A stretch of 55,482 bases of DNA, from positions 1 through 55,482 of the forward strand of contig KZ539027.1 of assembly GCA_000934665.2 (NCBI GenBank). Reading direction: 5' to 3'. The position numbers were made by a program, and so were the translations under genes. Position 1 is the first letter of the stretch, and each line of letters opens with the position of its first letter. The notes under the pieces are model-generated. The model searched no databases. It had not been told where the DNA came from and saw nothing but the letters and a program-made list of their open reading frames with translations. This document shows, piece by piece, positions 19,046 through 50,345 of this stretch. Source of the DNA: Catajapyx aquilonaris. Its lineage: Eukaryota.

Positions 19046-20522
19046 CCCCCCCCCCCTCCCCGATTAATTTTATAATGTGAAGGAATTCCAACGGAGTTTT
19101 CTACCAGCCTGTTCGAATGGGCGGTTTTCTATCGGCTATCTCGCCCATTCCTCCTATCATTTTCCAGAAACAATATATTCCTTCCATATCCCCCCCTCCC
19201 TATTATGGCCAATAGCTTATTAGTATAGGTATAGCTTCGATCCCCCAATAAATGATAAACCAAACCTTACCGACCCAAATGTTATATAAAAGCTGATGGG
19301 GAGGATTTGTGCAGAAGAGCCTTCTGCTTTTTGAAATAAATTACTTGGAATTAGTTGCTTTGACGTATATCAGACTTGCTTTGAACATAATAAAGTAGGA
19401 GTCAAGGAACACATTGAACAATGCCCAACTCAATTCCGCCCAAATTGTGATTATATTCATTCTGAATTATAGTTGTTTACATAATTTTGGTGTTGTTTTT
19501 TTGTTCGAGCTGTAAATAATTATGGCACATCTGTACTATTCCATAAGGTATGCACTGTACGTCAGCCTGTCGGCAGCTGGAAAAATATGCCACATTGTTT
19601 TGTTTTTCTTCGAAGGAACCCCGCCGCCTGCCTCTCCAAGAACTCGTATAATTTTCGACGTATACGTATAGAACTGTGTCCTGAGATCAATTAGGTGGTG
19701 GAAGTAGAGATTTGGTGAATTAATATAATTATCTTGCGTTTCTTGTCTATAATGCATTTAATTTCTGGCCCGTTCATAGAGGCTCTATCATAAATGGTTA
19801 CCCCGGAGATCCTCTTTTAAAATAATAGGCCTACTCTATTCTATTCCTACGCTACTGCTGAGTTTTGATAGTGGAAGGAAACAGCAAAAATTAAGAGAAA
19901 ATCCACGTGTACAATGAGAGAAGTAAGCAATCGACACTATTTTGCACCTGAGAAATTCATCTGTCTCATCCGGGGATCAAAGTCGGGACCTTAGAGGCCT
20001 TGTCCCTTGTGTATAACTCCAATATAGGTATGCATTTTTGATCAGTTCAAAAGTTCAGGTCTGCAGCACACCTGTGCTGACCACACTTTGAGAATCACTG
20101 CTAACATCCTGATGATGATCAATAATTTTGCACCCCTCCAAATATATTGTGATGTCTATGTGCCTGAAGCATAACCCAAATGTGGCTACCAGACAATAGG
20201 AAGGAGAATGTGACGACTGCACTGTTACAAGGAATCCATATCACTTGATTCTCAGTGTTTGAAACTGCCGCGCGGATAAGTACCATTCACAACAATTTTC
20301 CACGAAATCCGGCAAATGCACCCCAGCACATGCCACCACGGAATATGTATGGGTAAACAAAAGGCTGCATAACTACGCATAGTTCAGGACGGTTCGGGGA
20401 AAAAAGCGGCGAATACCTGCAGTTCATACTTGCTGAGTCACTGTACCGGCCTGTGTTCTTGACGAATACGATACCGTAACGTGTAAGCGTGTCCATCCGC
20501 TGGTGGCGCCACCTATTGATTG

Positions 20523-20530
20523 TGACGTCA
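20523..20530. promoter_or_regulatory. CRE palindrome TGACGTCA upstream of the TMX gene
   Basis: Perfect CRE about 58 nt upstream of the ATG, in a CpG-rich proximal region. Confidence 0.45.
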
Positions 20531-20587
20531 TCAAAGTGTTTAGACAGCAACCGTCGAACAGAGAAGAGAACGAGGGGCGAATCGAAG

Positions 20588-23500
20588 ATGTCGAGGGCAA
20601 TGTTCTCGCCGTGTTTTTCGCCGTCTAGGGCTGTGCTCTTCCTTTCCTTGTTTTCGGCCCTGCTAGTGTCTGCCGGGCAGGCCAAGCCCAAGTCCGGCCT
20701 GGTGAAACTAGACGAGGACAACTGGTGGCAAATCCTGAAAGGGGAATGGATGGTTGAGTTGTGAGTTGTGCTATGGAATGATTTTGGGAGGGGATATGAC
20801 ATGGAAGAAAGTACAAATGGACAGTGGTTGACAGCTATCTTCATTTTATAGCTTTGCCCCATGGTGCCCAGCTTGCAAGGCCTTGCAGCCCATCTGGGAG
20901 GAGTTCGCAGGATGGAGCAACGACCTGGGGATACAGGTTGGACAGGTCGATGTGACAGCTTCACCTGGACTGAGTGGAAGATTCATGGTTGCGGCCCTGC
21001 CGACTATTTACCAGTATGTATGATGTTCACATAGGACATAGCCCACTGCATTACAGCCGGGTCTGGTGGTTAGCGCGCTCGCCTCTAGACCCAAAGTTGT
21101 GGGTTCAAACCTGGCCGAGGTCGGTGACTTTTCTCCTGGTGGTAGAAAAGTGAGAGTGCGCCTTCTTTTGGAGGGGAAGTAAAGCCGTCGGTCCCGTGTG
21201 CTTGTGACATTGCGCGAGTGCACGTTAAAGATCCCCAGAGTGGCCAAATTTCCAGGAGGAGGACCACCCCCTGGCGTCGGTGTTGAGCCTAGCAGCAGAA
21301 ATAGGCCGACGTTAAGCCCCCACTAAAGCCCACTGCATTTTGCTGGGGCTGATATGCTGGGCATTACAAGGGTGATCATTTTTTAAGGCCCAGCCTGCAA
21401 TAATTACTGATAACCTGTGGGTTTTACTAGGAAGAGACTGTGCTACAACATAGCCCGGAGCCCAACAGGCTCGCCAATTAATTTAAGATTTAAGTCTATG
21501 ACAAAGTGGCATTTTAGCCATAATGAACAGTCTTGTTCTGTGTGACCCTCTCGCTTGTCTATTATTTCTCACGTGGCAGTGTTGACAGATTTTGTGGTTT
21601 GATTGGGAAGAAGCCAAACAGAGTAAAGGCCGGTGTACACATAAAGATTTCTCGCGCGCGAGGAGCCGATTGCACATGCCCGGATCCAAGGAACGAGGAA
21701 AAGTAGAAAATTTTCAACTTTGATCCCCTTTCCGAGGGACCAAAGGGGCCCTGAGGCGATAAAGAGTCTGTCTCGACGGACAAGATTCCTGGCTCAAGAG
21801 GACTCGTGCCCGAGAAACTTTTACGTCGATACAAGCCTTAAGGCTAATATGCTATTAGAAGATATGTGGGTGGAACAGATGGGGATAGAAACAAAGAAAA
21901 AAAGGAGGCCAGAGAAGACTGGTGTGTCGCTTTTTCTCCTAACCCAAAAATACATTTCCAGCTTGGGAGATCCTGTCAGTAGCTATAGCTTATAGCTGTT
22001 GGGGTTGTAAGAAAAATACAGCAAGGTGGCGATACCATATGGGGACATTTTTGCAGTAGGTCGTGAGTGTGACACCTGCTCAGGTGCCAATCATCACATC
22101 ATGTGCTGGCTACCAGCTGATGAATATTTTATTTATATACTACAGTAACCTAATAATTATAATCTAACCTCCCTTTCCTAACATATGGAAACCTAATTGG
22201 CCACTTTTTCTAGGCTGCACACAGTAGTATGCGATCTTATTGCTGCTCCTTCACTCACAGTCAGTGTCCATCACTCAACACCAGCCTTTTCCTTTTCCTT
22301 TTTTCCTTTTTTTTTTAAATTCCAAAAAATGGTTAGCTCGCAAAATATATTCTGTAAACAGGTCAATTCAGGTTCCAGACACTGTCCCATACAAGCAGTT
22401 TTTTGCAGTGAAAAAGTACTTAGAACACTCCCAAGGCTTGACATTAAGCAGCTGTGAAGTGTGAAGTTGTCTTCTTTGTACAGTAAATTACTCCAACTTT
22501 AGAATAATCATTGCAAAAGCATGATTTTGTATTGCTCGGTAGTGTGAAATCTCAGGTCCATTATGTCATGGGATCATACCGTTATCATAATCACCTCACA
22601 CTTTCCTCTCTTACCAAAGTATTATTGTGAAATAATACGAGGAGTGATCAGAAAGTAAGGTCTCCAAGGCTGTAACCTTTATTCTGTATGAACACAAATG
22701 ACGAAACTTACAGGGTAGATGAGGACAATGGAGATCTACTTTTCGATGTAGTTACCACACCGAAGAACGCACTTATCCCATCGCCAGACCAGTTTCTCAA
22801 TCCCTTCCCAATAGAAAGGGGTGCCCTGTTGACAGCACCAGTCACACACAGCCTTCTTCGCCTCATCGTCGCTTCGGAAATGCTGACCTGCCATGTCTGC
22901 TTTCAGGGCTCTGAATAAGTGATAGTCTGTGACGGCTAGGTCGGAACTATAGGGTGGATGAGGAAGAACTTCCCTGTCGTATTCATTCTGCAAAGCCATG
23001 GTATCCCTCGGTGTGTCTTGACGGACGTTGTCGTGGAGAAGGATGACCCCAGCAGTGAGCAATCCTGGAAGTCGCGACTATCAATTCGGAGAGATACGCA
23101 GTGAGCAATCCTGGAAGTCGCGACTATCAATTCGGAGAGATACGCAGTGACCCTGGCGAAGTTGCAGAAGGCCATCAGGTGGAAACGACCAGGATTGCTC
23201 ACTGCTGGGGTCATCCTTCTCCACGACAACACCCGTCAAGACACATCGAGGGACACCATGGCTTTGCTGAATGGATACGACTGGGAAGTTCTTCCTCACC
23301 CACCCTATAGTCCCGACCTAGCCCTCACAGACTATCACTTATTCAGAGCCCTGAAAGCAGACATGGCAGGTCAGCATTTCCGAAGCGACGATGAGGCGAA
23401 GAAGGCTGTGTGTGACTGGTGCTGTCAACAGGGCACCCCTTTCTATTGGGAAGGGATTGAGAAACTGGTCTGGCGATGGGATAAGTGCGTTCTTCGGTGT

Positions 23501-25279
23501 GGAAACTACATCGAAAAGTAGATCTCCATTGTCCTCATCTACCCTGTAAGTTTCGTCATTTGTGTTCATACAGAATACAGGTTACAGCCTTGGAGACCTT
23601 ACTTTCTGATCACTCCTCGTATGTCAAATGATGATTGTGTAAATTTATGGTTATTGTTTTGCTATAGCCTTCCATGATTATTCAAAAGCTGATTAACATG
23701 GAAGGTGACTACACAGCTGTTTAGTGCCAAGTCTAAGGAGTCTTCTAAGTACTTTTTTCATGTGATAAACTGCCAGGAAGAGGCAGTTTTGGGGGCATGA
23801 AGTGACCTATTTGGCTGTCTCTTTTGCTAAGCTGCCATTTTTCAGATCTGGAAAATATTTGAAGAGGGTGAAATGATGGACAATTCATGATGGGAGGATC
23901 AGTATGATCATGCAATACTGCATGCATCATGGGAAAATTTGTCAGATAGGTTTAAGAACCTTAAGAAAGGGAGGTTAGGTTAGGTCAGCGTAGGTTGGTA
24001 TGCCTGTTAAAAATTAGTCACAGGATCACCTGGCAGCTAGTGCATGATGTAATGATGATGACTTGGGCAGGTATTGCACTCTGAATAGTCGACTACTCCA
24101 AAACTTCACAATTAGTCCTGGGCAATAAATGGCCAATGTGAAAAATGGATGCACAAAATTGAGCCAAGTTCTCAATAGTTGAAATACCACTATGTCATGT
24201 TTTTCAACCTTGAAAGTGTACTTGGTGAACCTTTTGGGTTCTGTGCTACGTTGGAGTGTAGGGGTCAATTTTTCATCCTACTAGGCTACTAGTAATCATG
24301 GTATCCCATGAAAAGCTTATGGGAGACTCTTGACTAGTAGAAGCAGGCTAGTAGCAGAGCCTTCGCAAGTGGACAAGAAACCAACCCTAGGTTTTTGGAA
24401 ACTCTTCCAGATTATGGTAAAATAATTACCAAATTTAGCATGTATATTTCCTCAGTATGTTCAAAGGTTAGTGGCTGGGTTATGGAAATCTCAAGTCTTT
24501 TTCTGTGCTTTCTTGACTCTTGTGATTTACATTTTACTTGTTGCTCATTAATTGATTAGAACATAAGGGCATTACTGTTGGCCTGGTGAGCAGAACATTA
24601 CTCAGCATCTATAATATTAAATGCTTCGTTGCACGACCTAGCCCTCTGATTGCCCCGGCCGCATATTGTTGTTACCGCACGCTTCCTATTGGCCCCCATT
24701 TATTGTTACCTCGACACCTCCAATTGGCCCCATTCCGAGCATGCGCAATGGGTGGAAGAACGCCACGGTCGCTTGCTGGACATCAACGAGGACACTTCTC
24801 TCCCGTGAACACCCCTCTATCCTTCCGCCCTCCTCCACCCACGTCGTCACGGTGACCTCACAACAGGGGAGGGGGAGAGGAGGGGGGAATGGCACGCCGT
24901 AAACAAACAGAACACAGGCTATAGTCAGGATCTGTTATTTATCAGTGGTGCTAACTCCACGGACGTTTAATAAATAAAGTAAAATAATTTCAGTTTTTAA
25001 AGCAAGGTCCTTACTGGTACCCCCACGGAGAGAGTGGGTAACCAGGATTGACCGGGATATACAACACTGAACCCGGGGATAGGTCGAGAACGTCAGAAGA
25101 AAGTGTCGGGGAGAATGAAACCAGTGTTTGATCATTTAATACAAACACTGCCGAGTTCCATGGACATTTATAAGAAAGGGGAGTTATGAGCAGTTAGAAA
25201 AACGTGGTCTGAAAGTGTGCGTATAATTTAGATACATGTGCGAGTGCAGAGGCAATAGAGGTTGTGAGTTTCCGTTCAT

Positions 25280-25354
<75 letters not shown>

Positions 25355-28300
25355 TGTAATTTTTTAATGCCAAAGGTATGGACATGTGAGGTTGGAAAAT
25401 GCATATTTCCCAGCCAATGCAAAGGTGGGATTTCAGACGGTTCGCAAGGTAGAACAGAATCATGGATATCAGAACGGAATGACGGATGCATAAACGGGTG
25501 GGGTGGGGAGTACACATATGATTGGGGGATGGGAATCATCACTGACTATAAGTCGGAAGCAATTTAAAATGAATTGTCTACCGCAGGATTAGAAAAACGT
25601 GAGCGAAGTGAGCGGTTTCTATGCCTGCACCATAGAAAAATTCGAGAGTTTTTCTAGTAAAATATAATAAAATCTTATCATCTTGTGGCCTAATATGTGA
25701 ACCTGATCCAAGATTATTTACCTGGATTTAATACCTTTCAGTGTGAAAGATGGAGAGTTTCGCCGTTACCATGGGTCTCGAGATAAGGATGAGTTCATCA
25801 GCTTCATCGAGGAAAAAAAATGGGAAAACATGGAGAAGATACCAGGATGGAAGTCACCTGGATCTTTCCAAATGAGCCTTGTTGCGTGCTTCTTTAAACT
25901 TTCGATGACCCTTCGTGTAAGTAGTCTCTTAATGTCCTCCTTTTTGAGAAAGCGCACCATGTTGCATGCATACAGTGGTGTATCATACAGAGTGAAGGGT
26001 AACTCCCAGGTAGACTGATAGTACTTGAAAAACTAATATAGGGATGTGCAATTAGTTTTTGGCTCCATTGCGTAGTTAATGTGTACAGCGCCCTTAAAGT
26101 GTAGAGGGACAGATGGTAAAATACGAGGTAAAGTATGACAAAGTGCATGGGTGTTGCACCAGGATTCTTACTGACAGGATTTGATCACCTATTGCACATA
26201 GACGATGAGATAGGGTACCAAGGCCAGATTATTTGCAGGTCCTCGAGCACTTTTAGAAACAGCTGGAGCAGATGTGACGTCACGAAACTTTGAAGGCGCC
26301 TTACGCAACTATGGACATACGAAACTAATTGCACATCTCTATATTAGTTTTGCAAGCACTATCAGTCTACTGGGCGATTATCCGCGAGTTTCCCTTCACC
26401 CTGTCTAGGGGCATTTCGGAACATGAGAAGGGAATCCCTACATGACCAGAAAAAGCCAAGAAAGTGCAGATTGTTTTATTTTTACTGTATTTTTATTGTA
26501 AAGAATATAAGATGAAAGACTTGGCCTGCTCACCTTCAAGCCTCCTGTAGACAAGTAAAATATTTTCACCTCAAAAGGAAGGGCAAAAACCATGAACAAC
26601 GGTAGTTAAAAGTGTGAATCAGCTGCTATGCCATTGGTTTGAAGGAAAGCAACTCAAACATATGTGTTGCATGTGAATTTTGCCTGCAAGTCAACAAGGT
26701 TTATAGCATATTTGATTGCCTATGGCTCCAATCTGGGACACTACTTAGTCTTCAGTCTGGCCTATTGAAGTTGCTTCTCTTTAAGCCCTCAGTTGCTACC
26801 TGAAGTTTTTTTGTGGAATTTATAAGCACCCTGTACAGGTAAGTCCAAAACGAAATGTACAAGTAATCCTAATTAAATTGACCAGCTGACATGTCGGATG
26901 ATAATTATGCTGGATCCACTTATGGAGGCTACTATTAACCGCAAAAGTAATGTCACACTGTTATGTGATGGTGTCCACAACTTGTTGTTTAACATGGGTT
27001 GTGGATTCCGTAATATTGCCAAATTAACATCCGTAACTCGGCCACGCCCATGCTAAGCAACAAATCGCGGACGCCATCACATAACATTACTTTTGCGGTT
27101 AATAGTACACTGTGTACACTAACTGTAAGTGGCAGGACATTGAAAGCAGTAACAAGTGCCCTCTAATTTATATGCAACCCCTTTTTTTTGGCAATTTTTG
27201 ATGTTGCACTGCATGAAGACCAATCAGAAAATTCTTCATCATCATCCTACAATTGGATGGTCACCATACAGAACATCCCATGTACTATATCGCCCAAAAA
27301 GATAGAGACGATTTTGCATTTGACTCAAGTGCAACTTGCACTTGAATCAAATGCCAATCGTCTCTATCTTTTTGAGCGATGTAGTACATCCACAGTCGAA
27401 AGTGAGGTATTAGTGCCAATGAACAGAGCCTCCTTCAATGCATATGTACCAAAACAGTTGCATTTCGAAACAGCATATGACACCTTCAAATTATAGTGAA
27501 ATCTCAATATACAGTAAAACTTCTATAAGTCAAAAAAACCATGGGACCGGAAAAAAACTTAGAGTTATAGGATATTCGAGTTAGAGAAGTTCGGAAATTT
27601 TTAATCACATAACTCTATAAGGATGCCTACCTTTATATCCAGCGACAAAAGGCGTTCAAAACCTAAAAATTACTGTCACTATGACACTACAATGTTCCTC
27701 ATTGTTTTGTTGGGAAAAAAAAATCTCCGTTATGCACATTTGCCTACTCTTAGATCGACTCTCACTTTTAATAAAATATTCAATTGTCACAATCGAGTCA
27801 AACACTTCTTTCGGTACGTCTGGTCGCGATTCCACCCACACACACGAAGATTGGCCTACTCTTGACCCTTCGGCTGGGAGAGAAATGAGAAAATTTTCCG
27901 TACTCGCCAACATGAACTTTGACTTAGGGAGACTGAAAATGCATCAATATCCCATCATAAGGCCCTGTCTGCTCTTCAAGTTATGGAGAACTTTGGGTTA
28001 TAGAAATTCGAGTTAGGGAAATTTATTTCCTATTACTTGACATTGTGACCAACCAAGCTCATAATTTTCTTCAACTTGACCGAAGCAGGTTGGCATAGTG
28101 GATAAGGCGTCCGACTGCTAATCGGGAGGTCCTGGGTTCGAATCCCGGGGCCGGCAACTCTGACCGTGGTTTTCTGTGGTTTTCTGTGGTTTTCTGTGGT
28201 TTTCCGTGGTTTTCCACGGTCCTTCCAGGAAAATTCCGGAGTTGTTTCCGTAATTAACAGGCCACAGCCGCTTCCTTCTGTCCCTATCCCATCCCAAAAA

Positions 28301-39625: not shown

Positions 39626-40722
39626 CAGTGTTAATTGAACATGGACTGTCTTTATAAGTAAAAGGTCCCTCTGGATGCCAGGACACCTGTTCCTCCATAC
39701 AACAGCAACAGCTGCACTTATCACCATTTCCTTGGCAACCTTGGAGATGCATAATGCATATGATGAAAAATAGTAGAAGTGCGATTATTAGCTGTAAAAT
39801 TTATGTGGGATACTGTATAAAAACGGCGGTGTATTTTAAGTTATGCTTACATTGATTTTAAATATGTAATTTAAAATTTTGCACTTGATACTGATATTTG
39901 TAAAAGGTCAGGGAACCAGTAAATTCAAATTTCGAAATCAGCAATATCTGCATGTTATTCACTTCTGGTTCAGTTTCTCTTGCTATGAAGGGCCTCAAAA
40001 GTTCAGATAAGCACATCCTATGGTCAGGCTGAAGGTCAAGCAGGGAGAAGGTCATAGTACTCATACTAGAGTGGTCCTTTACCAATGGTTTAAGTAGAAA
40101 TCTCCTTAATTCTTCTTTGAGGTTAGCCACATCCCTTCACAAATAAATAATTATTTATCATTTTCACACATGTAGGATTTCCTTATGGCATGAGTCGGAT
40201 GGTTAAAACGTTTTGACAAAAATTGTAGATATAATGGCATAATTTGGCATTGAATTGATGCCTGGTACCAAGAGGGTTAATTATAGTACTTGAGAGAGTG
40301 AATGAGAAAACTTTGTGTATGCATTTGTGTCTGATATAACTGTACTGAACATTTGCAAGCGAACCTTGATTAAAAGTAGTTTTGACGAGCTTTGCAAGCT
40401 TTTTCTCATGTGCCCTGATGTTCTATTTCAATTTTCAATTGTATGCTAGAAAGTTATTCTGTTATGTGTGTACAGGGTGGTGCACTGCATAAGTCCTCAT
40501 GTAAAAAGGGGTAGGGGAAGAAGTTATGAACAGCTCATCCCTGTAATTAGTTTCAAGAGTAAGGGAGATCGGGGTCAGTTGTAACAGGGTATGGTTGTAA
40601 CATCGCCAATAATAAATACGTTTGGAAGGACCTGAAGCTGAAACTCACACAGTACATGTGTCACAATGGCTTCTAGGCCAGGCAAAACTTTGGCTACTCC
40701 TTTTTTGTTTTTTGTTCTTCTA

Positions 40723-41554
40723 CAGGGTGTAAATGAATTAGGGGGACAAACTTGTAGGGGTAATAGAGGGGACCAAGACAAACATATTTGACCTAGGAAC
40801 CCGTGTCCGGAAACGCCATCTAGAGGGGGTTCATAGACAAGGAATGAGTGCGCTCAGACGCGTCAGGCAGGCGGCTTTAGCGAGCAGACCGTTTAGTTGC
40901 TAGGTGGCGTGCGGATTGTACACAACTTCGCAATTTGCCATAACCTGGAAACAACAGAGCCACCTAACAACTAAAGTCAGCATGCTAGGTAGCGCCAAAG
41001 AGTTCTGCTATTATAATTATAATATAATACCTAGAGGAGGTACTCCCTATCCTTCTCCATTAGACAGGCTGAGGCAGCGGCCATCTTGTTGGAGGTAATA
41101 TTGTTGTTCTAACAGTTGTCTAGCAACTGGGACAACAACCAATAATGACAACTGGGCGACAATTAGTTCAATAATGTCAGGGGTCTGCCATCTTGTTGGA
41201 GTAAATATTGTTGCCTGCATTGTTGCCTGCCTCACATTTCAGCCCGAGTGCCTCCTCTAGGTATATATATAAAATATAGCAGAACTCTTTGGGTAGCGCA
41301 CAGATAATAAACAACAACTCTGTTGTTGCCAAGTTATGGCGAATTGCGAAGTTGTGTACAATCCGCGCGCCACCTAGCAACTTAACGGTCCGCTCGCTAA
41401 CGCCTCCCACCTGACTCGTCTGAGCGCACCCATTCCTTGTCTATGAACCCCCTCTAGATGGCGTTTCGGGACACGAGTTCCTAGGTCAAATATGTTTGCC
41501 TTGGTCCCCTCTATTACCCCTACAAGTTTGTACCCGGAATTCATTTACACCCTG
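40723..41554. mobile_element. Large palindromic Tc1/mariner-type MITE
   Basis: TA|CAGGGTGTAAATGAAT ... ATTCATTTACACCCTG|TA, with arms over 300 bp. It appears nested in a larger element carrying GGGTCAGTTGTAACA repeats (about 40560-42305). Confidence 0.9.
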
Positions 41555-42601
41555 TATATGCAAAAAACAAAAATCCTGGTGTGTTTCCAACTTATTTGAG
41601 TGGCAGTAATTAAGTGATTATTGGAAGATTTACTGAATTGCCCTTGGTATCATGAGAAAGGTTATTTTAGTGGGGTCACACTGACGGTATGGTTGACCAA
41701 ATCATGTGCACAGTTAAAAAGTAGTAAGCATATCTACAAGGCAACACATAATGGGGACGGTTGTAACAGCTTCCCTGGGGTCAGTTGTAACATGGTAAAA
41801 TCGTGAGAGAAAGGTCAAGTCTGTGTATAGATGTTACAACTACATATTTCACAGGATAGTGAGAGTAAAAATAGATATTATTTTGTGCAATAAAGCCTCA
41901 ACCAGTATATCGAAAATTTATATGAATAAAAAATCCATTTTCTTGTTATACTTATCTGCTGAATAAATCCCAGTGTATCAAGAGATAAAGAGTCATCTAG
42001 GTGGACCAAACAGGCTCTAAGACAATTGTCGAGAAGATGAGTGGATGTAAACTGTTCTTCCATATTACATTTACCATTTAAGACAGAGTGTTACAACCGC
42101 CCCTATGATGGGATCAGTTGTAACATTCTGCCTTGCCTAGAAAAAATATTTATAAATCCATCAATTTTTCATCTTAAGATTTTATCATGTTAATTTCAGA
42201 AAGAGGAATGTTGCCTTATTTCCACCATGGCATAAAACTTTGCCTAAATGCATATATGTAACTGAATTTAAAAATTCAGACTAAAAAGTGTTACAATTTC
42301 CCTTACTAATTGGCAGCAAGAAATGGCACATTCATTTATTGGGATTGTTGTTTCTCTTGAGAGTAGTTGCTGGAATTAACCACATAAATAATTTTTAAAC
42401 ACTGTAACATTGCATTGTAACTGCATTTTGGTGCAAGACCGTTGATTTCTGTATGTATCCAGCTGAAACTAAAATTTTAACCAAGATGACAATAGGACCA
42501 AGGGTGTCAGCAATGGCACACTCTAGTGCAGCTATGTGTATTATAAGAACTCTCCATGTGTCAATGGGAAATATATGCCAAAACTAATATCAGTTACTGT
42601 A

Positions 42602-43790: not shown

Positions 43791-43900
43791 CGAAATCTAT
43801 CTATGGCACACCCAGACATGTGTGGACTGTTGTAGAATCTTGAATGAACCGTCTTGATCAGTGGCATTTAATTAGACGCAAGAATAATTTTTTTAAATGC

Positions 43901-43906
43901 TTTATT
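43901..43906 (-). terminator. Polyadenylation signal AATAAA downstream of tectonic
   Basis: TTTATT on the + strand, 60 nt past the tectonic stop. Confidence 0.65.
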
Positions 43907-43965: not shown

Positions 43966-45840
43966 TTAATAAACTTGGTGAGATAAAACGCATCCCCAAA
44001 ACAATCCAGGTATTACCAGCATGAAGGTGAAGAGACACCAGCAAGACATTGAATCATCCTTAGTGCACATAAATGGGTAATAAAAGTCATGTGGTAACCT
44101 GAAGTCCACTCTCGGTGGATATCCAAATATCTGTTCCACTTCTCCTGTCAGGTCTACAAAGCTGACCTGAGTTTCTAGGTGCAATGGTGGGCAACCTGTT
44201 TGACCACATTTTATATCCTTCCTTGTGCCGAGCTTGTACCTGACCCCTATCACTTTGGCTTGGGGGTCGTCCACGTCACCCACATTTGCGTAGATGATAG
44301 TTATATCTAGGAAGTATGGTATGGATGTGCTACTTGCAGTAGGGCATACCACCTTAACCCAATCATCACCTTCCAGGGCATCAAAATTACCAAAAGCGGC
44401 TGCATACATTTGGTTGTTTCTATTGCAATTATCCACCAAGTCACCTAGTAGCAACTCAGTTGCACTTTGATGCAAGTCAGGGAAGTTGTTGGAATGGTTT
44501 ATGAGACATGAAATTTGTGTATCAACACCAAACTCAACTGCTGATCTATGTGAATTGCAGTCTTTTGTGAGTGTGGTCACAACTGTTGTGTCAGTAGAGC
44601 TGTCAGATGAATTCGTCATTTTCAGCATGATAGGGGAACCATGTTGATACCCAGGGTTGCCACTACGATGCCATATGGTAATGTTTGATGAGTTATTATT
44701 GTCATTGTGCCAGTGGAATGTGATGCTGAATTCCTGCTCAAGAGTGGGTTCAGTAGTGTTTTGCAATGTAAAGTATGCATCTATGGAATCGATACCAGCT
44801 GTATTGTTTTGGTGTACAAAAAACGACACTGACTTGACTGCATTGTGACACTTCCCACTCTCTGATTCATATGGTGTTGGCAAATCATTATTGCACTCTG
44901 GGACATCGCAGTAGGCATGGTAACACCAGCATACAGACATATTCACCGAGTCATATTCAGTTGGTGATTTCAATATAGCCACATTGTACGTTGACGCTGC
45001 AAGCGCTCCCATCTTGTTGCATTCTACTTTTTGTGTACATGTTTGTGTTACATCTCGCATATACCGAACAGGCCAGGCCACGTTGCACTGGTCACCCAAC
45101 ATGGCTGCTGGTAGACTCCATTCTGGCCCTATTGTATTGTCAAAAAGCAGGATGGGCTTTCCAGAAGTATATGATGTCATGTGGCCACCTGTGACACGCT
45201 TGGGGGAGTGCCACCGGTATTGCTTTTGCCTTGTTACTTTCCGGAACTCACTCAAAGTTTCAATTTTACTGTGTTCTGGCAGTTTGCTTTCTTGTACTAG
45301 ATTGTCTCGGTATATGCAAAACATACCTGGAACTTTACGGCTGACATAGTACTCCGTATTGTTCCATAGCACTAAGTCACTCTTGAAACAATATCGTGGA
45401 TCTATCAGTGGTGGCTCATGATCAACACACCTTGAAAATGCTTGCCGGTCCCATGTAGTACAATTAGGATCACAACAGCAGTCAATGTCACATGTTTCAA
45501 CTGTGAGGTCACACTGGCATGCATCGGCTTGTCGATATGCGAAAGGTCTTACATAGCTCTCTGGGGGCTTTGTGACATTACATAATGTTCCATTTTCACA
45601 CAATGTTGAATTGTCACATAATGTTCCATTTTCACACAATGTTGAATTGTCACAAGATGTTTCATTGTAACACAATGTTGCATTGTCAAGCTGCATTGTA
45701 ACATTATCATGCAGAAATGTCACATTGTCATACAGAAATGTCACATTGTCATACCATAATGTCCCATTATCAGGTGAGACTGTTGTAAAATTTCTGCTGA
45801 CTACTCCAATTGCAAAAAGAAAAAAAATACTGTAGTACAT
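43966..45840 (-). CDS. tctn: Tectonic family ciliary transition-zone protein, 624 aa, single exon
   Basis: Signal peptide MYYSIFFLFAIGVVS, tectonic hallmarks CQCDLTVETCDIDCCCDPNC, SGNPGY..G.P and LPHDFYYPF, and a hydrophobic C-terminus. The first ATG is at 45840 (the ORF track starts at a TTG). Confidence 0.93.
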   Translation of the reverse strand: MYYSIFFLFAIGVVSRNFTTVSPDNGTLWYDNVTFLYDNVTFLHDNVTMQLDNATLCYNETSCDNSTLCENGTLCDNSTLCENGTLCNVTKPPESYVRPFAYRQADACQCDLTVETCDIDCCCDPNCTTWDRQAFSRCVDHEPPLIDPRYCFKSDLVLWNNTEYYVSRKVPGMFCIYRDNLVQESKLPEHSKIETLSEFRKVTRQKQYRWHSPKRVTGGHMTSYTSGKPILLFDNTIGPEWSLPAAMLGDQCNVAWPVRYMRDVTQTCTQKVECNKMGALAASTYNVAILKSPTEYDSVNMSVCWCYHAYCDVPECNNDLPTPYESESGKCHNAVKSVSFFVHQNNTAGIDSIDAYFTLQNTTEPTLEQEFSITFHWHNDNNNSSNITIWHRSGNPGYQHGSPIMLKMTNSSDSSTDTTVVTTLTKDCNSHRSAVEFGVDTQISCLINHSNNFPDLHQSATELLLGDLVDNCNRNNQMYAAAFGNFDALEGDDWVKVVCPTASSTSIPYFLDITIIYANVGDVDDPQAKVIGVRYKLGTRKDIKCGQTGCPPLHLETQVSFVDLTGEVEQIFGYPPRVDFRLPHDFYYPFMCTKDDSMSCWCLFTFMLVIPGLFWGCVLSHQVY

Positions 45841-45841
45841 G

Positions 45842-48800
45842 TTAGTACTCGACTCCAAAGTCTCTGAAGTTTTTGAACACGATGGTCAACTCGAGATGCA
45901 CTGTTCCCATGGACTGTGTTTGTAGCCGGTACCGGTCTACTCCAGTGTAGACCAACTCGGGGGATTTCAGTTCAGGTCCTCCTCCAAGAAAGAACTGTAT
46001 GATCCTGTCCTGGGTTGAGCTGATTGGTCGCCAGGTCTGCACCTCAATTTGATGGAGTCCAGGTGTGCATGGGATGTAGCAACAACCGTATGCGTAGATC
46101 TCACTGCGGCCAAATACGTCTAGATGGTACACTTCCACATGTATCTTCGGCCAACCTATGAGCAAAATCCAGTTTTTAAAATCATTATGTAACATTGTAG
46201 AAAGAAGACAATCTTCCTATTATTAATTATTTTCCTAGTTGGAGAGTAGAATTCGTAGGAATTACAATAAAGGGAACAATAATGGTTGAGTAACTTTATG
46301 AAGTTTAGGGCGACACGGTGGCAGAGTGGTTAGCGCCGGAGCCTTCCACCTCTAAGGTCCCGAGTTTGATCCCCGGATCGGACAGAGGATACTTATGTGG
46401 ATAGAGTTTCGATGGGTTCTCTCCGTGTTCGCGTAGGTTTTCTCGGGGTTCTCCCGTTTCCTCCCACTATCAAAATCGATCACAGCAAAGGCAATGATTA
46501 AAGACGGTAAATTAAAAAGATGATCCCCTAAAAAGCCCAAGGAGGCTTATCACGGGGTATCCATTATAAACTTTATGAAGTTTATCATGGCAGATTTATA
46601 TACTGTATGTCCTTGATTAATTATACTATTTGTTTGCTGATCTCTCTCATTGAGATTTCCCCCTTGATTTGTTCTTGCCAATTGATGTCGCTGATGTACC
46701 CAAATGTGTATATGAAATAATAATTATGTATCATTCATGTCAACCCAAACAAAAGTGGTCCGTAGGCCCCTCAAAAGGGGTATGTGAAAATATTTCAGGT
46801 GTGTACAGGGTGTCCCAACTGAAATGGACATAGAGGTTAGCGATTTCTTACACTAATCTGCCTCCTGATCAGTTACTTTAGTAGTTATCAAAAATATGAA
46901 CTGATAACATTAGCTTGAATGGGTGCATTCATTCAAAGTATCAGTTGCAATTTACATTCTTCAGACATTGTGACTGTCACTTTTTAACCCACTGCAGATG
47001 CACTTGATGTCAATAGTTGGGCTCATTAGCACTTCCAACATTGTGTTACTCGAGAGGGGCTTGACCAGAATATTTGGGCAAAGGATGCACATGCTGACTA
47101 ATCAAACTGTATGTGTCTAAAGGCTGATTACCAAACACCTCTGCACATGCTAAAGTCCGCTATGCTCAGCAATCAAGATGTATAAATGATGGAAAGAGTA
47201 ACCCTTCCGGGCGTGCAGGAGGAGGCAAGGGGAGTGGTGGCTGGGGGTAGCTTGGCTATGTCGCAAAGGGAAGGATGCAAAGATTGATTTTTTGGATTTT
47301 CGAAGGGGTATGCTGTACCAACCTAACCAAACCAAGCCTAACCTTCCTTCCTTGCGGATACAGACCTATCTTTGCGACACAGCCCACTGCCCCCACCGAC
47401 TACTACCCTCCCGCCTCCCTCACGCCCGTAAGAGCAAGTATATCCTAAATGATAAGCCGGACTTAGCACAGGTATCTCATTTTCAATTATTGTAATATAT
47501 TATCACCATTATGTAAATATCCTTAAATACAATTGAAACCATACCCTGCTGTCTCTTTATCTCACTGGAACATGTTTTCACTGTTGCCAATTATTATCCA
47601 TTGGCTGTGCCATAGATGTTACCTGATGTTACCCAAGACCTGTGCATACTGAGGTTCTTTTACCATATGTTCCAGGGCCTGAGATCAAGACACCATTTCA
47701 ATCGTATTTAATGATATTTACAAAATGGTGATAATTACAATAATCGAAAACATAATCACCTGATATCTGAAGAGGCGCTGTATTGTTGGCTAGAGATGAA
47801 CCTGGATGCGAAGAGATACCTGTCCTAAGTCTGACTCATCTTTTATACATCTTTATTGCTGAGGATAGCGGACTTTAGCATGGACAGAGGTGTTTGTTAA
47901 CCAGCCATTAGACATGTACTGGTACGCTGGTACTATGGGGCTCAAATCTTGAAGGAACCCTTATTCACAGACACACACACACACACCCACTCTTGTCTTG
48001 ACTAAGGCGTGGGGACGGACATTGATCACTTTTCACTGCGAGTGTAAACTGATCTAACCTAACCTAACCTAACCTAACCTACCCTACCTAACCTACCCTA
48101 CCCTAAGTAACCTAGGCTGAGAAAAATGGACTTTTGTGAAACCCTACAAATGAAAATAGTGGGGACATGTCCCCACTAATTTACACATGTCCCCACTGTA
48201 ATGGTACACTTCGCGTGTGTGAGACTGTGGGGACCGACAAATGTCCCCACAATTGGAACTGGTCCCCACAGCTACAGTAAAACCACAGACTTCCGTCCCC
48301 AGACCTTAGTCAAGACCTGATCACCTGCTCAACGTGGGGCCTGTGAGAAGGGTTGCTTCAAGTTCAAGACCAGGATAAAGTGGCCAAAACAATTTGAGCC
48401 CCATAGTACACTTTGATTTGTCAGGGTGTGCATCCTTTGCGCAAATATTCTGGTCAAGTCCCCCTCGAGTAGCAATGGTTTGAAAAGGATGCACTCTGGA
48501 CCTGCTAATATTTTATAACTTCAAACATAGCTATTTTAAAGTCACTGATTATAAGTAATCAGCTTAGTGTGAAAAAACACAAACCAATAAGTTATGTACA
48601 ATTCATTTGGAACCCACTAATAATGGTTGACAAGTTATTGGCATTAGTCTGATATAATTATTACAGTATCAGCATGGGCTGATTACCTGAGGTCAATTAT
48701 GCTGAGGCCAGAACATATGGAAAAGTGTGCTTGTAGTAATATGGTAATATGCACTTATACAGGATGGCCATAAAATCTGGAACCAAAGGCAGTATTTTTT

Positions 48801-50320
48801 TCAAGTTACAGGTAAGCTATGGCAATGACAAAGACGACTGGGTTGTGTTAATCCTTCTTTGTGGACAAGAGGTATGGACGCAAAGAGAGATGGTGTCCAA
48901 GTTCAATAGGAGGCATCTGGAGAGGTCAATAAGTCATAGGGCAGTTGGAAAATTACTAATTGGCTTATTGACCTCTCTGGATGGATCCCATTGAGCTTGG
49001 TCGCCACTTCCCTTTGCATCCATTCCTCTCATCCACAAAGAAAATTAACACCACCCGGTTGTCTTTCATCACTACCATAGCTCACCTGTAATCAGCAAAC
49101 AATACTGCCATTGGTTCCAAACTTTATGGCCACCATTTGGAATTGGAAAAATTATGTGACAGATTATTATTGTTGCACAGGATTATAGCAAAGTTTGCAG
49201 AGAGAAGAATGGTTCCATGGCAGGAAAAAAAGTCAAGACCCCTGGCTTAAAGCTAATCAAACCATGCAGTTTTAATTTAAACTGTGCTCTCATGAGATGT
49301 ACCAGTGACCCAGGCTGTGACAGTGTCATAGGTTCTCTCCACAAAAAGGGCATGATACAGTTTACTCTCTGAATAATGGAAATTTTCTCAGTTATGATAT
49401 TTTGGAGATTAAATAACATCTACTCATAGAGTGATTCCCTATAACCCAGGAACTCACTCTTTAATGTTATTGTAATGTTTATGAAACACTGCATCATTAC
49501 TAAATGAATGCCCCTTGTACAGGATGGCCCTAAATGCCTAAAGTCTGGACACAGGCATATGTAATTTTGTATTGTATTGCTGGTTGACAACTGGCAACCA
49601 ACAATACAATATGTGCCCAGACTTTAAGGCCACCCTGTGTAGTGACTGTAAATGGGAATGTGAGGAACAGTGGTAGGTAGACTTATGTTGTAACTATACA
49701 CACCTTTGATACCTTTGGTTCCATAATGTATGTCAATAGGGTGGCTCCAGCAGGAAAAGTTGTCATGAACGGGGCAGTCTGCTTGTGTTTGTCCTTCAAC
49801 CTCACCTTCCAAAACCAACCATGCGTCTCCTAATAAAATATTTTTTTTGTATAAGTTTAACAAGTATCAGGAGCACAAGTACAGTTTTAAAAAATTACAT
49901 GCATGATACCTGCTGTAATAACAGAGCGAGAGTGATTCAGGCCGGGTTGCACCGACTCCCGGAAAATCTATCCGTTCGAAAAAGAGCCAGGATAGTTTAT
50001 TATTGATTGTTGACAGAATTGTTGACAACAATCAATACCAAACTATCCTGGCTCTTTTTCGGACGGATAAATTTTCCGGGAGCCGGTGCAACCCGGCCTC
50101 AGTCATGGATACAAAACTAATGCATATCCCTGCCATCTTGTTCCCATATTATGTCAAATGAAATCAATGTTGGTGCATGACAGTAACGGGTTATTTGTTT
50201 ACTGCATTAAAAGTGCCAAGTTTGGGTCATACCTGCGCCACAGTAAAACTTGCAGAAGATGTTTCGACCTGGAAAGGACTTGCCTCCGACTATCTCTCCG
50301 ATTACGTGAACTTCAGCCAT
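45842..50320 (-). CDS. B9D2: B9 domain-containing protein 2, 175 aa; exons 50320-50233, 49829-49704, 46155-45842
   Basis: MAEVHVIGEIVGGKSFPGRNIFCKFYCGA|GDAWLVLEGEVEGQTQ...WSHPIDIHYGTKGIK|GWPKIHVEVYHLDVFGR...FRDFGVEY*. Exons of 88+126+314 nt with phase-1 GT-AG introns. Confidence 0.95.
46308..46568 (+). mobile_element. tRNA-derived SINE, family D (B9D2 intron 2, antisense)
   Basis: GGTGGCAGAGTGGTTAGC A box, GAGTTTGATCCC B box, TSD AACTTTATGAAGTTTA (46292-46307 / 46569-46584). Confidence 0.88.
47050..48470. mobile_element. Nested inverted-repeat TE cluster in B9D2 intron 2
   Basis: Outer arms 47050-47170 vs 47858-47915 plus 48408-48470. Inner TACTATGGGGCTCAAAT...ATTTGAGCCCCATAGTA element (47932-48409), which itself contains the CTAAC-repeat element (47995-48316). 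Confidence 0.7.
48760..49136. mobile_element. Palindromic Tc1-like derivative
   Basis: GGCCATAAAATCTGGAACCAAAGGCAGTATT ... AATACTGCCATTGGTTCCAAACTTTATGGCC. The left arm has an HTH-like remnant (QREMVSKFNRRH...ISHRAVGKL). Confidence 0.7.
49940..50098. mobile_element. Harbinger-like palindromic MITE in B9D2 intron 1
   Basis: GGCCGGGTTGCACCG ... CGGTGCAACCCGGCC with 3-bp TSD TCA. Confidence 0.85.
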
Positions 50321-50331
50321 TAGTTCTTGAC

Positions 50332-50345
50332 GTTTTCATGGCAGG
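50332..50345 (-). promoter_or_regulatory. X-box-like (RFX) motif upstream of B9D2
   Basis: Minus strand CCTGCC-AT-GAAAAC matches RYYNYY-N1-3-RRNRAC except at the first base, about 12 nt upstream of the ATG of a ciliary gene. Confidence 0.5.

Follow-up and report, generated by a model that had tools for sequence, protein, structure and literature searches.

In the 55,482-nt stretch of Catajapyx aquilonaris DNA analysed here (contig KZ539027.1; hereafter the window), a B9D2 gene ends one nucleotide before the start codon of a tectonic gene, and a UGGGA motif near the B9D2 stop resembles a viral termination–reinitiation signal (TURBS). We place about even confidence in the reading that UGGGA is a by-product of the codons for Met154-Gly155, that the adjoining 4-bp helix is due to chance, and that the locus would be an old arthropod bicistron whose tectonic cistron is reached mostly by scanning. 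By analogy with fruit flies, both genes are probably carried on one message, on which scanning would be a more likely route to the tectonic AUG than ribosome tethering. The locus is laid out as follows.

50313..50339, minus strand: uORF of 8 codons (context GCC-AUG-A) that overlaps the B9D2 start and stops 5 nt past it
50233..50320, minus strand: first coding exon of B9D2, whose start AUG is in weak context (C at -3)
49704..49829, minus strand: B9D2 exon 2
45842..46155, minus strand: B9D2 exon 3, last codon TAA at 45844-45842
45838..45844, minus strand: stop/start junction TAA-C-ATG, tectonic AUG with A at -3
43966..45840, minus strand: tectonic ORF, intronless, 624 aa, with hydrophobic stretches at the N- and C-terminus
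43867..43906, minus strand: first AATAAA/ATTAAA signals 3' of the B9D2 stop

The upstream ORF, joined from three exons, encodes a 175-aa B9-C2 protein (PF07162), B9D2, and the downstream ORF encodes tectonic (PF07773, PF25752). A single C separates the B9D2 stop from the tectonic ATG (45840-45838, minus strand), and this TAA-C-ATG junction is identical in all four genomic copies. Scanning for AATAAA and ATTAAA revealed no poly(A) signal from the B9D2 stop to the end of tectonic, and an Rfam scan of positions 45700-46100 returned just two sub-threshold snoRNA matches, on the opposite strand. An orthologous pair on the same strand with stop and start a few nucleotides apart is what characterizes a dicistronic locus of the Drosophila type.

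The same two genes form a dicistron in Drosophila, where B9d2 (CG42730) and tectonic are separated by 2 nt, compared to 1 nt here, and are listed as "all di/polycistronic" in FlyBase File S1 (PMC4528330; see also PMC5037411). In the available portions of these two sources the locus is annotated as exclusively dicistronic, its gene order can be deduced from the common forward primer of two GFP constructs, and no mechanism is stated. The C. aquilonaris locus differs in that tectonic is intronless and four diverging copies are present. Linkage of B9D2 to tectonic was also found in three further lineages: L029 (2-nt gap), nine termite-like loci (47 nt) and L017 (41 nt). uORFs overlapping the B9D2 start occur in L029 and L017 too, and in the paralogues C1679 and C1305 the uORF frame is retained despite insertions of 1 and 5 nt. 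No B9D2 relatives were found in the genome-contig or viral-contig collections searched, and the B9D2 tree resolved no deep branch. These comparisons indicate that the gene pair is real and its stop/start coupling old, and the arrangement known from flies is apparently an old one among arthropods.

Fused B9D2–tectonic gene models exist in bee, stick insect and beetle (P0111, P0017, P0275), a further sign of linkage and also what would be expected if a fusion protein were made by readthrough, frameshifting or splicing. However, the three models differ in their join points, each tectonic ORF begins with its own hydrophobic leader, and the frame relation varies between loci (gaps of 1, 2, 2, 41 and 47 nt). 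This lack of a conserved frame leads us to reject fusion by readthrough or frameshifting, and a fusion protein of any kind seems barely credible. A cytosolic B9 domain in place of the signal peptide is topologically implausible.

The earlier note on this DNA had proposed that the end of B9D2 may carry a TURBS driving tectonic translation, composed of the following elements.

45912..45915, minus strand: AGUC, 5' strand of a candidate 4-bp P1 helix, in Gln-Ser codons, preceded by C
45905..45910, minus strand: AUGGGA, candidate TURBS motif 1, coding for Met154-Gly155, its AUG 70 nt 5' of the tectonic AUG
45859..45862, minus strand: GACU, 3' strand of the candidate P1, in Asp-Phe codons, 14 nt from the stop and 18 nt from the AUG

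These elements lie where the earlier note placed them (ATGGGA at 45910-45905, AGTC at 45915-45912 and GACT at 45862-45859, minus strand). Met154 is the sole internal methionine of B9D2 in the window, and its AUG opens a 22-codon in-frame mini-ORF that shares the B9D2 stop. In TURBS, the fourth pair of P1 is C-G, a C lies 5' of the helix, the distance to the AUG is 12-23 nt and to the stop 12-24 nt, and the frame ranges from -8 to +6 (PMC11921876). As in the viral TURBS of caliciviruses, influenza B BM2 and hapaviruses (PMC11921876, PMC3035654), RUGGGA in the window follows a 4-bp P1 by one base, with a 5' C, a C-G fourth pair, linkers of 14 and 18 nt and frame +4. The likeness therefore goes further than had been claimed, in the preceding C, the C-G fourth pair and the 18-nt linker.

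Such agreement with every primary-sequence rule of PMC11921876 is what a functional cellular TURBS would show, in which UGGGA would pair with 18S helix 26, retain the post-termination 40S subunit and allow restart at the tectonic AUG. We turned the rules into a descriptor (RUGGGA; P1 of at least 4 bp with a C-G fourth pair; 12-23 nt to the AUG), which matches at only 5 of the 2,315 ATGs on both strands of the whole window; when the 5' C is also demanded, the B9D2–tectonic site is the single match. Among 20,000 synonymous recodings of exon 3, on the other hand, RUGGGA appears in 43% and the full descriptor in 16%, or in 12% when only Watson-Crick pairs are allowed. The signature thus exceeds chance when compared to random DNA but not when compared to what the encoded protein yields. 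MG is the most frequent dipeptide at the Met154-Gly155 column (41 of 143 aligned rows), Met-Gly being found at this site also in fungi, an amoebozoan, molluscs and vertebrates, and GGA makes up 12 of the 20 Gly codons in the window B9D2. Most of the signature can be accounted for by the encoded protein, and UGGGA is most likely a mere ancestral Met-Gly codon pair, not a ribosome-tethering signal.

Computed folds also differ from those of viral TURBS. Folding z-scores of +0.8 to +1.4 place the predicted stability below that of shuffled sequences, and the forced TURBS structure is predicted at -4.5 kcal/mol, compared to -12.5 kcal/mol for the free fold. The predicted probability of P1 is 0.001 in a 79-nt segment; in longer predicted folds it rises to as much as 0.35-0.5, but then the run of Gs is itself base-paired. 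No stable predicted fold leaving UGGGA unpaired was obtained at the junction, no P2 adjoins the motif despite a 42-nt loop, and no covariation of P1 was seen between the two tight-junction lineages compared, the P1-like helix of L029 having two G-U pairs and a shifted register. The window site is thus unlike viral TURBS in lacking a stable predicted fold, a P2 by the motif and covariation, and in having a motif that the protein explains.

The tightly linked L029 retains AUGGGA together with a descriptor match (chance about 0.10), and UGGGA occurs in three of the four linked lineages versus none of five unlinked loci, where GGA is likewise absent. In the cockroach/termite-like loci, however, tectonic still lies behind B9D2 but the codons are ATG-GGT and the gap is 47 nt, while L017 retains GGA with no P1 and a 41-nt gap. 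In 7 of 26 insect proteins, counted regardless of linkage, UGGGA is not encodable ~30-96 nt from the stop. Furthermore, UCCCR is present in 0 of 8 distinct 18S helix-26 loops, which were chosen by one sequence type. The species' own helix 26 was not found in the assembly, where the profile match was a 5' 18S fragment only (model positions 57-388) and two pattern searches gave no match. Of two 18S patterns run against viral contigs, one had no match and the other 16, none with 18S context; the 18S fragment, used as a query against plasmids, led to nothing useful.

Altogether, the earlier interpretation stands as far as the stop/start coupling, which is real and old, and the geometry are concerned, and is not supported where it makes UGGGA a functional rRNA tether: the Met-Gly pair is ancestral, linked termite-like loci have GGT, and no stable or covarying P1 or P2 was found. 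Free variation of the Gly third position among species keeping the bicistron had been named as contrary evidence; it has changed once in linked species, to GGT in the termite-like lineage, which also lost the tight junction, and this change is not fully decisive. We consider a functional cellular TURBS highly improbable. Very unlikely, too, is a version confined to the lineages with 1-2 nt junctions (window, L029), in which Met154-Gly155 would have been co-opted as a TURBS while the Met154 AUG also feeds scanning ribosomes to the stop.

Start contexts and methionine content are more consistent with scanning. The B9D2 start has a pyrimidine at -3 in all three linked lineages with a visible start (window, L029, L017), whereas A occupies -3 in the paralogue pair with a decayed tectonic, in L016 and in L035 (one-sided Fisher p=0.05, post hoc); L018, with ambiguous tandem AUGs, was left out of this comparison. 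All four linked lineages have A at -3 of the tectonic AUG. The 22 insect B9D2 contain on average 1.18 internal methionines and the 27 others 2.44, the insects being one clade and not independent; outside column 154 the counts are 8 and 48, respectively. A weak ORF1 context and AUG scarcity are described, in the available part of PMC11892635 (which cites Wall et al. 2005), as the signature of bicistrons in green algae and of Drosophila stoned and Snapin, which the present locus resembles in its weak ORF1 start, strong ORF2 start (by the -3 base, in a small sample) and Met-poor ORF1. Unlike these bicistrons, it keeps one in-frame Met in most insects (Met154 is retained in 23 of 28 insect B9D2, although competition would be expected from an AUG in frame), and the window copy shows no depletion of out-of-frame AUGs (5, one of them in good context, versus 6.6 expected; P=0.27). 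Termite-like B9D2 carry ~9 out-of-frame AUGs and two more AUGs in the spacer. Since AUGs are not depleted here and the termite-like load is high, pure leaky scanning is unlikely and resumed scanning would be needed. FlyBase curators, in the part of their account available, hold that most fly dicistrons lack what scanning requires.

We therefore propose a mixed form of scanning. Scanning 40S subunits would skip the weak B9D2 AUG, or initiate at the overlapping uORF and then resume scanning; the short ORFs out of frame and the 22-codon ORF at Met154 would then be bypassed or translated briefly, before initiation at the strong tectonic AUG. One mRNA would in this way supply both subunits of one ciliary transition-zone complex.

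The paralogues bear on two alternatives to scanning. In the C7061 copy, a stop lies 193 nt 5' of tectonic and exons 1-2 are absent from the contig, yet 482+74 tectonic codons are open, and tectonic dN/dS between the window and the C7061/C4983 copy is 0.40 (p=0.001). The C7061 paralogue thus keeps an intact, constrained tectonic behind a broken B9D2. We count this copy in favour of the proposed reading, and it bears indirectly on whether tectonic translation requires termination at the neighbouring stop. A constrained tectonic with just an exon-3 remnant upstream would be expected if most tectonic were translated from a shorter transcript of its own, with a start in intron 2 or exon 3, and the junction were a leftover of tight packing. 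The two AUGs in the termite-like spacer fit this as well, and monocistronic isoforms exist for many fly dicistrons according to the material available on them. The Drosophila locus, however, has no annotated monocistronic isoform, and a shorter transcript gives no reason for weak B9D2 starts and Met depletion; we regard it as unlikely. Alternatively, closeness of stop and start, or an unknown signal, could support reinitiation independently of UGGGA, ribosomes restarting 1 nt after ending B9D2 or the Met154 ORF. Three distant lineages agree with this in having gaps of 1, 2 and 2 nt, internal AUGs would hinder pure scanning, and TURBS-free coupled reinitiation in cells is on record in the accessible text of PMC5972666. 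Against it, the gap measures 47 and 41 nt in two other linked lineages, the depletion of in-frame Met would not be predicted, and tectonic is maintained in C7061 behind a broken B9D2, though Met154 could still feed the stop. This explanation is doubtful to us.

No contig or transcript joining an intact B9D2 to an intact tectonic was seen in the species among run X5 contigs (depth <5). Those contigs have equal depth (4.94) at exons 1, 2 and 3, letters of the C1679 type and ends near exon borders, and include two low-depth tectonic pieces. The pattern resembles a spliced transcript of B9D2 from the C1679 copy, reaching 44 nt beyond the stop; at depth <5 it is a hint only and does not enter the case for a bicistronic mRNA. 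We gave up the idea that the window copy is at half depth: in the tectonic contigs, two copies seem to have been collapsed into one.

Cellular TURBS have been suggested before: putative motifs of this kind, with UGGGA 5' of a close stop/start in cellular mRNA, have been described for mouse GAD and human SLAMF1 in the available part of PMC5972666; there the mammalian helix 26 is complementary, unlike the helix-26 loops sampled here. If Met154-Gly155 had been co-opted after all, it would be a working TURBS within a cellular coding sequence, fixing the ratio of two ciliary subunits. With a cellular TURBS unlikely here, the significance is modest but useful: the bicistron would unite two subunits of one complex and explain the fused B9D2–tectonic database models as probable annotation errors. 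Its spacer (1-47 nt), its start context and its Met content vary naturally, and the genome holds duplicated copies in which either gene has been lost, so that the locus may serve as a tractable system in which to ask how bicistronic mRNAs of animals are read.

The minus-strand ORF upstream of the junction encodes B9D2 (a B9-C2 protein; 175 aa from three exons), and the ORF downstream encodes tectonic (624 aa, intronless):

45844-45838, minus strand: B9D2 stop and tectonic start, TAA-C-ATG, read from the sequence

The closest named proteins to this B9D2 are those of hemimetabolous insects (58% identity), and a B9D2 tree gave no resolution. B9D2 intron 2 (46156-49703) spans 3.5 kb and contains high-copy repeats, e.g. 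at 46307-46567 and near 48300-48410; the same intron is 310 nt in contig C1679, which carries another copy of the locus. N-x-T sites are frequent in the short repeats of the tectonic N-terminus (45580-45780, minus strand), where a 36-nt unit varies among locus copies. Elsewhere, plus-strand exon-like frames at 20480-20761 and 25707-26015, which look like a thioredoxin-related transmembrane protein, had no Pfam match, and two fragments on opposite strands at 22739-23518 look like a mariner-type transposase.

In Drosophila, CG42730 and tectonic are listed as 'all di/polycistronic' with 2 nt from stop to start (PMC4528330 File S1, in excerpt); CG42730 is B9d2, its gene overlaps that of tectonic, and GFP constructs for the two share one upstream primer (PMC5037411, in excerpt). 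A literature search, with most subscription papers outside its reach, found no paper on the conservation or mechanism of the pair. Public gene models P0111, P0017 and P0275 fuse B9D2 to tectonic, in a bee (Habropoda), a stick insect (Timema) and a beetle (Popillia). These models point to adjacency in those genera, and the fusions probably arose when the bicistron was annotated as one gene. The pairing itself is a real and old arrangement, probably bicistronic here as well, and Drosophila annotation already records it.

The earlier note proposed that a viral-type termination-reinitiation signal (TURBS), whose UGGGA motif pairs with 18S helix 26, may drive tectonic translation. Its elements lie where the note placed them on the minus strand: ATGGGA at 45910-45905, and AGTC (45915-45912) facing GACT (45862-45859). 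Putative cellular TURBS motifs were proposed earlier for GAD and SLAMF1 (PMC5972666, in excerpt). The consensus comprises a purine before UGGGA, a C-G fourth pair in helix P1, 12-23 nt from P1 to the AUG, frames -8 to +6 and, in the large class, a C immediately 5' of P1 (PMC11921876, in excerpt). The candidate agrees with every one of these rules, a likeness beyond what the note had claimed. A descriptor built from them matches 5 of the 2,315 ATGs in the window, and only one when the 5' C is added; this rarity is the strongest point in favor of the proposal. The proper null for the motif is the encoded protein. Among 20,000 synonymous recodings, 43% regenerated RUGGGA and 16% satisfied the whole descriptor, a share that falls to 12% if P1 is restricted to Watson-Crick pairs; GGA accounts for 12 of the 20 Gly codons of this B9D2. 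The junction segment is less stable than shuffled sequences (folding z +0.8 to +1.4). P1 has a predicted probability of 0.001 in a 79-nt segment; longer segments raise this to 0.35-0.5, but the G run is then paired. A forced TURBS structure is predicted at -4.5 versus -12.5 kcal/mol for the free fold.

TURBS function depends on helix-26 complementarity, since the yeast response improves with a motif matched to the yeast loop (PMC3035654, in excerpt). A search of the assembly for its own 18S gave a 5' fragment only. This sole match (C4628:14626-15032) is divergent and very GC-rich, and is followed by tandem repeats. Helix-26 loops were sampled from eukaryotic 18S contaminants in prokaryote assemblies (10 of 18 submitted loci Rfam-confirmed: L053-L056, L058, L069, L070, L073, L075 and L080). 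UCCCR occurred in none of the eight distinct loops, the search pattern having selected one 18S type, and duplex energies were -0.1 to -7.8 kcal/mol versus -10.7 for a perfect complement. L053 may be fly-type and L055 a common insect type.

The window B9D2 has a single internal Met, Met154, which the motif's ATG encodes. Met-Gly outnumbers every other dipeptide at this column, with 41 of 143 aligned rows. Among named proteins, it occurs in 23/28 insects (two named entries lack coverage there), 5/5 lophotrochozoans, 3/3 fungi, 4/13 vertebrates and 1/7 crustaceans. From protein sequences alone, 7 of 26 insect B9D2s (three butterflies, a caddisfly, two of three midges and a phylloxeran) could not encode RUGGGA in the region some 30-96 nt ahead of the stop codon.

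A single metagenome scan yielded 20 related loci, 16 of which show the junction; L028 stops short of the B9D2 stop and three have no final exon. A domain search confirmed tectonic in L017, L029, L021 and L026. Nine cockroach/termite-like loci (four distinct sequences) all read ATG-GGT at the Met-Gly site, with 47 nt and two AUGs between the stop and the tectonic AUG. L029, whose nearest named protein is from a thrips, has the junction TAA-CC-ATG and retains ATGGGA, with a possible P1 that includes two G-U pairs and is shifted by 2 nt; under its own codon usage (GGA in 10 of 14 Gly codons) the chance of such a candidate is about 0.10. L017, an unplaced animal, has ATGGGA, a 41-nt gap and no P1, and its geometry rules out a TURBS. 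The Gly codon, whose third position the earlier note suggested as a test, is GGA in 3/4 linked lineages and in 0/5 unlinked loci (GGT in four, GGC in one; tectonic undetected within 0.5-3.4 kb downstream), a trend in favor of the proposal that is too small to weigh. With Met-Gly widespread, the descriptor recurring in 12-16% of recodings and a fold worse than shuffles, we regard a functional TURBS as very improbable; it keeps a slim chance because both tight-junction loci read retain UGGGA.

The genome holds four copies of the locus, the window and three partial ones (C1679, C1305, and C7061 with C4983), with identical junction and motif; divergence is too low for this to be informative. C1679 and C1305 retain open B9D2 exons under constraint (dN/dS 0.21, window versus C1679), and their tectonic is frameshifted, truncated or interrupted. 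In C1305, an element with inverted ends (L037:1715-2290), resembling window 40721-40989 and 41318-41558, is inserted a few bases past the tectonic AUG, and a tectonic fragment farther along is inverted. In C7061, a contig that does not include exons 1-2, a B9D2 stop codon lies 193 nt upstream of the tectonic AUG, and tectonic stays open across 482 codons and a further 74 in C4983, which is taken to be continuous with it (dN/dS 0.40, p=0.001). Because tectonic is constrained behind a broken B9D2, full-length B9D2 translation is not needed for it. A separate tectonic transcript is rather unlikely in our estimate. A loophole remains: Met154 is the sole AUG between the premature stop and tectonic, and its 22-codon ORF terminates at the normal stop. 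TURBS-independent reinitiation seems to us about as doubtful as a separate transcript.

Weak B9D2 starts, strong tectonic starts and few internal Met are also features of bicistrons read by leaky scanning, in algae and at the fly loci stoned and Snapin (PMC11892635, in excerpt, which cites Wall et al. 2005). At -3 of the B9D2 start, the window, L029 and L017 have a pyrimidine, and C1679/C1305, L016 and L035 have A; the linked-versus-others contrast is post hoc (one-sided p=0.05; L018 dropped as ambiguous, L030, with T, of unknown linkage, termite exon 1 outside the loci). Tectonic has A at -3 in 4/4 linked lineages. The window, both paralogues, L029 and L017 each have a uORF that overlaps the start of B9D2; that of the window (50313-50339, minus strand) keeps its frame in the paralogues through compensating indels. 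Insect B9D2s have half as many internal Met as others, a share that drops to roughly one fifth once column 154 is set aside; p=0.0003 overstates the contrast, since the insect counts represent one clade. Out-of-frame AUGs in the window B9D2 are not depleted, which counts against pure scanning; the five present open short ORFs of 6-32 codons, all over by CDS base 326. Ribosomes may scan through B9D2, resuming after short ORFs, to reach the tectonic AUG. We consider this the best mechanism, ahead of its rivals, with an even chance of being right.

L017:748-1243 comes from an AT-rich animal with B9D2-tectonic linkage, and because its B9D2 is not clearly insect-like, the pairing may be older than hexapods. 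In the present genome, two copies kept B9D2 but lost tectonic and one kept tectonic but lost B9D2, as if duplication were breaking the bicistron up into separate genes.
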